Of a stretch of 64,000 bases of DNA, positions 27,640 to 28,165 are shown in pieces. Numbering within the stretch: position 1 is the stretch's first letter; each line of letters starts with the position of its first letter. The notes beneath the pieces were generated by a model. The model was not told the origin of the DNA. It made no database searches and was given only the letters and a program-made list of their open reading frames with translations. Both the position numbers and the translations under genes were made by a program. The stretch lies in NCBI RefSeq assembly GCF_057098645.1, contig NZ_CM169472.1; one strand, given 5' to 3'.

Positions 27640-27820
27640 CAAAAAACCCCGCCGGAGCGAGGTTTCGTCAGCCGCCCGCGGCTGGTAACCGCAAAGCACA
27701 CTGTATTATGTCAACACAGAAAGTATACGTGTTCCGCGCAAAACGCGCAATTTCGGCACGAATTTTGACGTATTTAGTGCATAGTTGAGTATCGATCACA
27801 GTTTGCGTTTTGTCCAAATA
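27640..27820 (-). ncRNA. istR: IstR antisense sRNA region (coordinates approximate)
   Basis: Position between ivbL and tisB, divergent from the tisAB promoter; placed from known locus architecture, not from a mapped transcript. Confidence 0.35.
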
Positions 27821-27823
27821 TTA

Positions 27824-27839
27824 CTGTTTATTTATACAG
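27824..27839 (+). promoter_or_regulatory. LexA box (CTGT-N8-ACAG) on the tisAB promoter
   Basis: CTGTTTATTTATACAG matches the SOS box consensus exactly and sits just upstream of a TATAAT hexamer at 27848..27853. Confidence 0.85.
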
Positions 27840-28075
27840 CAAGCTTCTATAATATCACTGTACGCAATGTGTTATGCGGGGGCCGCATCGTTACCCGGCG
27901 CACTAAGTCCTGGCTGAAACGGGTGGTGCCGTCAGCGCCTTAACCCCGCGTGAGCACACTGTGTTATGTCAACGAGCACAACGTTTCTCCTTGAGATACC
28001 GCGTGCACAACAGCTGGCAACAGGCAGCGGAAAGGTACGTCAGCTGGCAGTGCTCCTGAACCACAGGAGACGCGT

Positions 28076-28165
28076 ATGAGCCTGGTGGATATCGCCATTC
28101 TTATCCTCAAACTCATTGTTGCAGCACTGCAACTGCTTGATGCTGTTCTGAAATACCTGAAGTAA
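28076..28165 (+). CDS. tisB: type I toxin TisB (SOS-induced membrane peptide)
   Basis: Translation MSLVDIAILILKLIVAALQLLDAVLKYLK (29 aa), near-identical to TisB as I recall it; too short for the ORF track. Confidence 0.9.
   Translation: MSLVDIAILILKLIVAALQLLDAVLKYLK

Follow-up and report, generated by a model that had tools for sequence, protein, structure and literature searches.

A short direct repeat in the 64,000-nucleotide stretch of E. coli DNA analyzed here (the window) is the DNA footprint of antisense pairing between two divergently transcribed RNAs, the antitoxin IstR-1 and the tisAB mRNA. The genome is an ordinary E. coli genome, and the locus that carries the repeat is its copy of the already known tisB/istR-1 type I toxin-antitoxin system. 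Reading the repeat as IstR-1 and its standby site on the tisB message has a probability of roughly 0.97, and nothing in the evidence contradicts it. The sequence features, the identity with the K-12 locus, the strength and uniqueness of the RNA duplex, and its conservation with covariation across genera were all established in this analysis. The tisB/istR-1 system is a textbook case of ribosome-standby control and SOS-induced persister formation. The locus examined here holds no new biology, and its repeat had already been explained.

Genomic setting and match to the K-12 locus

An 801-bp query around the repeat was 100% identical to E. coli O145 str. RM9872, and at least 80% of this query was present in 4,150 of the 5,426 complete E. 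coli genomes. Compared with K-12 MG1655, the locus showed ~99% nucleotide identity, with scattered SNPs only, and the 21-nt core of both repeat copies did not differ from K-12. The annotated neighbors are ilvB, ivbL, tisB, ysdE, and emrD. The locus sits between ilvBN-ivbL and emrD on the chromosome, and its synteny (ilvB-ivbL / istR / tisAB / ysdE / emrD) is that of the K-12 tisB/istR-1 locus (b4618, b4616). For the K-12 system, PMC4147584 and PMC6690012 cite Vogel et al. (2004) and Darfeuille et al. (2007).

A preliminary description of the window, made from its letters alone, had proposed aligning the region with istR-tisAB of K-12 and consulting the transcript maps published for it. This alignment was run, and it explains the repeat. 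The K-12 annotation was transferred by the same means (window position = locus coordinate + 26822), and the resulting features are listed together with those found directly in the sequence in Table 1. Shared with K-12 are IstR-1, IstR-2, the position of the LexA box, the promoters, the standby/target sequence, the tisB Shine-Dalgarno sequence, and the terminator. In contrast, the locus differs from K-12 in a single residue of TisB (N2S), in the end of the LexA box (CAGCA, compared with CAGTA in K-12), in two substitutions in the IstR stem, and in a synonymous tisA change (ACA to ACG) just 3' of the target.

Table 1. Features of the tisB/istR-1 locus, in window coordinates
Feature	Position	Strand	Remarks
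istR-1	27641-27715	-	constitutive antitoxin sRNA, ~73-75 nt; K-12 IstR-1 annotation transfers to 27641-27713
istR-2	27641-27780	-	140-nt SOS-inducible longer transcript that includes IstR-1; from K-12 annotation
IstR terminator hairpin and U-run	27646-27658	-	intrinsic terminator
Repeat copy 1	27694-27715	-	encodes the IstR-1 5' end, 5'-GUUGACAUAAUACAGUGUGCUU, the antisense element
istR-1 -10 hexamer TATACT	27722-27727	-	from sequence
istR-2 promoter-like site	TGGACA 27816-27811, GATACT 27793-27788	-	spacing 17; from sequence
LexA (SOS) box TACTGTTTATTTATACAGCA	27822-27841	.	within the tisAB promoter region, directly adjacent to the istR-2 -35 hexamer; overlap with the tisAB promoter
tisAB promoter -10 hexamer TATAAT	27848-27853	+	TATAAT or TATACT in 13/13 aligned loci
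tisAB primary transcript	27860-28218	+	putative +1 at ~27860, placed by position
5' segment predicted to pair with the standby site	27862-27872	+	in the +1 RNA; absent from the +42 form
Repeat copy 2	27952-27973	+	tisAB 5' UTR; IstR-1 target and single-stranded ribosome standby site
tisA ORF, 37 aa	27966-28079	+	from ORF list
tisB Shine-Dalgarno AGGAGA	28065-28070	+	from sequence; predicted to be sequestered in structure
tisB CDS	28076-28165	+	29-aa ORF MSLVDIAILILKLIVAALQLLDAVLKYLK
tisAB intrinsic terminator	28189-28218	+	8-pair stem (7 G-C), then T-rich tail; conserved across genera

The antitoxin gene on the minus strand

The istR gene, which was absent from the preliminary description, lies on the minus strand and was located by an Rfam covariance match together with the K-12 annotation. 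The match to RF01400 (istR) covered 27641-27770 on that strand and was full length (model positions 1 to 130 of 130), with 145 bits against a gathering score of 45 and an E value of 2e-31. The istR-1 -10 hexamer was invariant across genera in our locus alignment and is reported to be 100% conserved in E. coli, for which the istR-2 hexamers TGGACA and GATACT are also tabulated identically (PMC11264685).

The IstR terminator (27638-27658) and the ivbL attenuator terminator (27352-27389) share AAC(G/A)AAAAACCCCGCC and a 16-nt inverted match. The 3' end of istR has been reported to resemble a terminator sequence that is common in E. coli (PMC11264685), and the likeness between the two terminators is probably a convergence of GC-rich terminator stems. 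Sub-threshold Rfam matches to naRNA4, STnc310, and P6 were rejected as members of those families, as they correspond to the ivbL attenuator terminator and to a REP element at the far side of the locus (see below).

The direct repeat and the RNA duplex

The two repeat copies, at 27695-27715 (AGCACACTGTATTATGTCAAC) and 27953-27973 (AGCACACTGTGTTATGTCAAC), are identical at 20 of 21 positions and lie 258 bp apart, start to start. The preliminary description had reported a near-identical direct repeat of 23 bp; the repeat is real and has about the spacing described, but 23 bp overstates the identical core, which is 21 nt long. Outside this core the copies diverge, with A/G at 27694/27952 and AC versus GA after CAAC. 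A search of the 64-kb window with the degenerate 21-mer (up to 3 mismatches) returned only these two matches, and the repeat 21-mer had 0 matches in 100 dinucleotide-preserving shuffles. Chance similarity has only the short length of the repeat in its favor, and we dismiss it on the basis of these shuffles and of the conservation of the repeat in 15 loci, described below.

One copy is transcribed from the minus strand and the other from the plus strand, so that what is a direct repeat in the DNA becomes a pair of complementary RNAs. The duplex between the IstR-1 5' end and tisAB has 22 contiguous pairs, two of them G·U, and a predicted energy of -34.8 kcal/mol, compared with -6.4 ± 2.6 kcal/mol when 22-mers were drawn at random from the window. 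Within the 64 kb, the IstR-1 5' end had just two full-register complements, the target and the gene's own opposite strand. Both A/G differences between the copies, the internal one (27705/27963) and the one outside the core (27694/27952), become G·U pairs, and since the latter position still pairs in the RNA, the functional length of the repeat is 22 bp. This 22-bp duplex is the published "21 nt of complementarity" between IstR-1 and tisAB. The copies do flank the promoter region, as had been described, but this placement is incidental to what they are, namely, an antisense RNA and its target. The tisB AUG follows 103 nt downstream of the 3' end of copy 2. Among over 2,000 E. coli genomes, conservation of the standby site is reported to be 99.9% (PMC11264685).

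Two secondary repeat families, D5 and D9, had hinted at an extended homology between the whole istR-1 gene and the tisAB 5' UTR, as had a long duplexfold solution, the energy of which ignores intramolecular structure. This candidate was rejected, as the flanks of the core matched no better than shuffled sequence: in local and core-anchored alignments, the observed scores were reached by 244/1,000 and 138/1,000 shuffles. The similarity is thus confined to the 21- to 22-nt core.

Conservation of the pairing across genera

A pattern scan of species-representative genomes by the conserved IstR positions (TAA.AC.G...) returned 18 loci, 14 of which were from Enterobacteriaceae. A TisB-like 29-aa ORF was present in 12 of these 14, and the two Enterobacteriaceae loci without one end early on the tisAB side. 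The matches in Agathobacter, Hymenobacter, and Meiothermus (two matches) had no TisB ORF and were discarded as chance. The Citrobacter amalonaticus locus is too short on the tisAB side to reach the target, while the S. arizonae locus, which has the target and no tisB ORF, was included in the pairing count and left outside the 13-locus alignment.

When the best complement of each IstR 5' end was sought with an unconstrained register scan, it was found 221 to 232 nt away from that end wherever the locus was long enough to include it, always at the homologous position of the 5' UTR. Fifteen loci, belonging to at least six genera of Enterobacteriaceae, preserved the pairing between IstR-1 and its target and yielded 12 distinct sequences (Escherichia, Salmonella, Citrobacter, Pseudenterobacter, Siccibacter, Franconibacter, and two further Enterobacteriaceae). 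Across the 22-pair helix in these 12 sequences, 98.1% of pair cells were paired, compared with 19 to 47% when the partner was slid by 1 to 3 columns; this slid-partner/shuffle control is not a probability. Seventeen of the 22 pairs were invariant, and it is important to note that part of the IstR side was fixed by the search pattern, so that those columns are biased towards conservation. Two pairs alternate between G-C and G·U, and one pair is compensatory, being U-A in five sequences and C-G in six, with one C/A intermediate. A single internal mismatch was found in Citrobacter Awk4 and NCU1, in Citrobacter 18056, and in the group of Siccibacter, Franconibacter, and UBA3516. There is genuine covariation across genera, but little of it, and it is the published experiments that carry the case.

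In the full-locus alignment, conserved islands stood out from an otherwise divergent spacer. For istR-1 these were the 5' end of the RNA and the -10 hexamer; at the tisAB promoter, the LexA core and the -10 hexamer; and along the tisAB transcript, a 35-nt stretch of the 5' UTR (27909-27943), the target, the Shine-Dalgarno sequence and ORF of tisB, and the terminator.

The central G·U wobble of the duplex (27705 versus 27963) is specific to Escherichia; all other sampled genera have C in IstR at this position, giving G-C. This wobble adjoins the putative RNase III (+106) position.

The LexA box and the tisAB promoter

The LexA box is the sole CTGT-N8-ACAG site in the 64-kb window, and the CTGT-N8-ACAG core was found at the corresponding position in 14 related loci. 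It had been called a perfect SOS box in the preliminary description. This holds for the core (CTGTTTATTTATACAG, exactly at 27824-27839) but not for the 20-nt consensus (TACTGTATATATATACAGTA), from which the site departs at 3 positions. This is one mismatch more than in K-12, owing to the CAGCA end (SNP at window position 27840; there is another at 27843). The K-12 LexA box is reported to be retained in 93.5% of E. coli loci (PMC11264685), and the CAGCA box would therefore be a minority variant. The TATAAT hexamer described just downstream of the box was borne out. The LexA box motif at the tisAB promoter points to SOS control, and the binding of LexA itself is taken from the literature, in which repression of tisB by LexA has been reported (PMC4147584, PMC11264685).

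The two repeat copies could also be read at the DNA level, as paired sites for a transcription factor (LexA or another) that bracket the divergent promoters and perhaps act through looping. They sit on either side of the promoter and LexA-box region, and each contains CTGT, half of a LexA half-site. However, the CTGT-N8-ACAG architecture occurs in neither copy, and the copies were rejected as extra LexA sites for lack of the palindrome. Both copies lie within transcribed regions, and their variation across genera obeys RNA pairing, with G-C changing to G·U and U-A to C-G. Further, the A/G difference in E. coli is silent only in RNA, and identical protein-binding sites would not tolerate it. 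As the published genetics and biochemistry also attribute the regulation to RNA pairing, we consider paired protein-binding sites to be highly improbable and retain antisense pairing between IstR-1 and tisAB as the explanation of the repeat.

The toxin gene and the tisAB transcript

The 29-aa TisB frame given in the preliminary description was confirmed. The RefSeq annotation of the identical O145 genome names this ORF TisB, and its product matched Pfam TisB_toxin (PF13939) with 37.6 bits against a cutoff of 25 (E = 2e-9). TisB is a hydrophobic, membrane-depolarizing toxin. Ser2, by which it differs from the K-12 protein, is reported in 85% of E. coli TisB sequences, making N2S the majority form (PMC11264685).

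The tisA product had no Pfam match. A segment of ~31 nt in the body of tisA (window positions 27975 to 28008), just downstream of the IstR-1 target, was missing in 8 of the 13 aligned enterobacterial loci; outside Escherichia and Salmonella, the 13-locus alignment retains it in just two loci, both of Citrobacter. The tisA frame is thus not conserved, which agrees with the literature, where tisA is reported to be untranslated.

The tisAB RNA has a reported length of 359 nt (PMC2577331). Placing the +1 position at ~27860 fits three independent points, namely, the 7-nt distance from the -10 hexamer, the 359-nt RNA, and the terminator at 28189-28208 plus its T-run.

Folding of the mRNA and published mechanism

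The mechanism established in the literature, applied to this locus, would run as follows. LexA at 27822-27841 would repress tisAB, and DNA damage would give rise to the primary (+1) tisAB mRNA, which is reported to be translationally inert. Loss of the first 41 nt (+42 form) would then expose the copy 2 segment as a single-stranded ribosome standby site, where 30S subunits and protein S1 would load in order to reach the structured tisB ribosome-binding site ~100 nt downstream. IstR-1 is reported to pair with the standby site, and RNase III to yield the +106 mRNA (PMC6690012); pairing over this segment would shut out the ribosome, and cleavage of the duplex would leave the message inert. TisB would be made only once the SOS-induced tisAB mRNA exceeds IstR-1, and it would depolarize the inner membrane and promote persister formation. 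Processing, standby loading, RNase III cleavage, and LexA binding are drawn here from the literature, with the processing sites placed by position.

Folding predictions touch on several of these steps. In the predicted minimum free energy (MFE) structure of the +1 RNA, positions 27953 to 27964 pair with positions 27862 to 27872. This pairing would make the primary transcript inert and is consistent with the published +1/+42 model of the tisAB mRNA (PMC6690012). In silico, the mean P(unpaired) of the target rises modestly, from 0.32 in the +1 form to 0.43 in the +42 form, and that of the Shine-Dalgarno/AUG region (28064-28078) is ~0.18 to 0.19 in all three mRNA forms. Pairing of the standby site in cis with the mRNA 5' end is possible because its core, CACACTGTG, is nearly palindromic. 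The standby-site core CACACUGUG, a near-palindrome, thus has two alternative partners, the mRNA's own 5' end (27862-27872) in cis and IstR-1 in trans.

A weak third copy of the repeat core, CAATGTGTTATG, was observed at 27865-27876, at the 5' end of the tisAB transcript, where it overlaps 27862-27872. The cis "anti-standby" element and the IstR-1 5' end might conceivably be paralogues, in which case the trans antitoxin would have arisen by local duplication of the mRNA's self-inhibitory element. We regard this as improbable; because the homology test beyond the 21-nt core was negative, nothing argues positively for common descent.

Related toxin-antitoxin systems

The shoB-ohsC, zorO-orzO, and dinQ-agrB systems resemble tisB/istR-1 in having an sRNA divergent from the toxin gene, with short complementarity to a long toxin 5' UTR, although their toxins and sRNAs differ from those of tisB/istR-1. 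To our knowledge, standby-site occlusion has been demonstrated in detail for tisB only. In hok/sok, as in tisB/istR-1, a small membrane toxin is under the control of an antisense RNA, its mRNA becomes active through processing, and RNase III cuts the duplex. Sok differs from IstR-1, however, in being encoded in cis with complete overlap. Its point of action is the mok frame, to which translation is coupled, and not a distal standby site.

In such divergent pairs, the block of complementarity has been described as a direct repeat in the DNA (PMC4147584). At the DNA level, a trans-encoded type I antitoxin and its target are marked by a short direct repeat flanking divergent promoters, together with a tiny hydrophobic ORF, and a repeat of this kind should prompt a check of the opposite strand.

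Variation of the locus among E. coli genomes

The tis/istR module and the adjacent REP element (27589-28275) form a presence/absence polymorphism in E. coli. In strain 21AR0173, for instance, the interval between ivbL and ysdE has ~155 bp of unrelated sequence in place of these 687 bp. The alternative allele was found in 1,059 of the 5,426 complete E. coli genomes, including Nissle 1917, and a search of it for an alternative small RNA gave no Rfam match up to an E value of 1. The absence of tis/istR from some E. coli strains has been reported previously (PMC11264685).

A segment that is present in some strains and absent from others could suggest that the two repeat copies have no role in RNA and are instead a recent strain-specific duplication or, as a target-site duplication, the direct repeats at the ends of an inserted element. 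However, the edges of the polymorphism (~27589 and ~28275) do not match the repeat copies (27695 and 27953), and neither copy occurs in the alternative allele. Since both copies lie inside 27589-28275, they are excluded as element boundaries. The strain-specific duplication, which the preliminary description had raised as an alternative, is refuted by the occurrence of the repeat in K-12 and in at least six genera, and the restriction of the similarity to the core also speaks against a recent copy. We thus see hardly any likelihood in either form of this explanation, and the repeat is best read as the IstR-1 5' end and its target.

The REP-type palindrome within the variable segment, at 28229-28267, lies between the tisAB terminator and ysdE; it is an inverted repeat with sub-threshold naRNA4 matches on both strands. 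The REP region itself varies between strains, as in some E. coli genomes the match to the query breaks off at position ~740 (window position ~28239).
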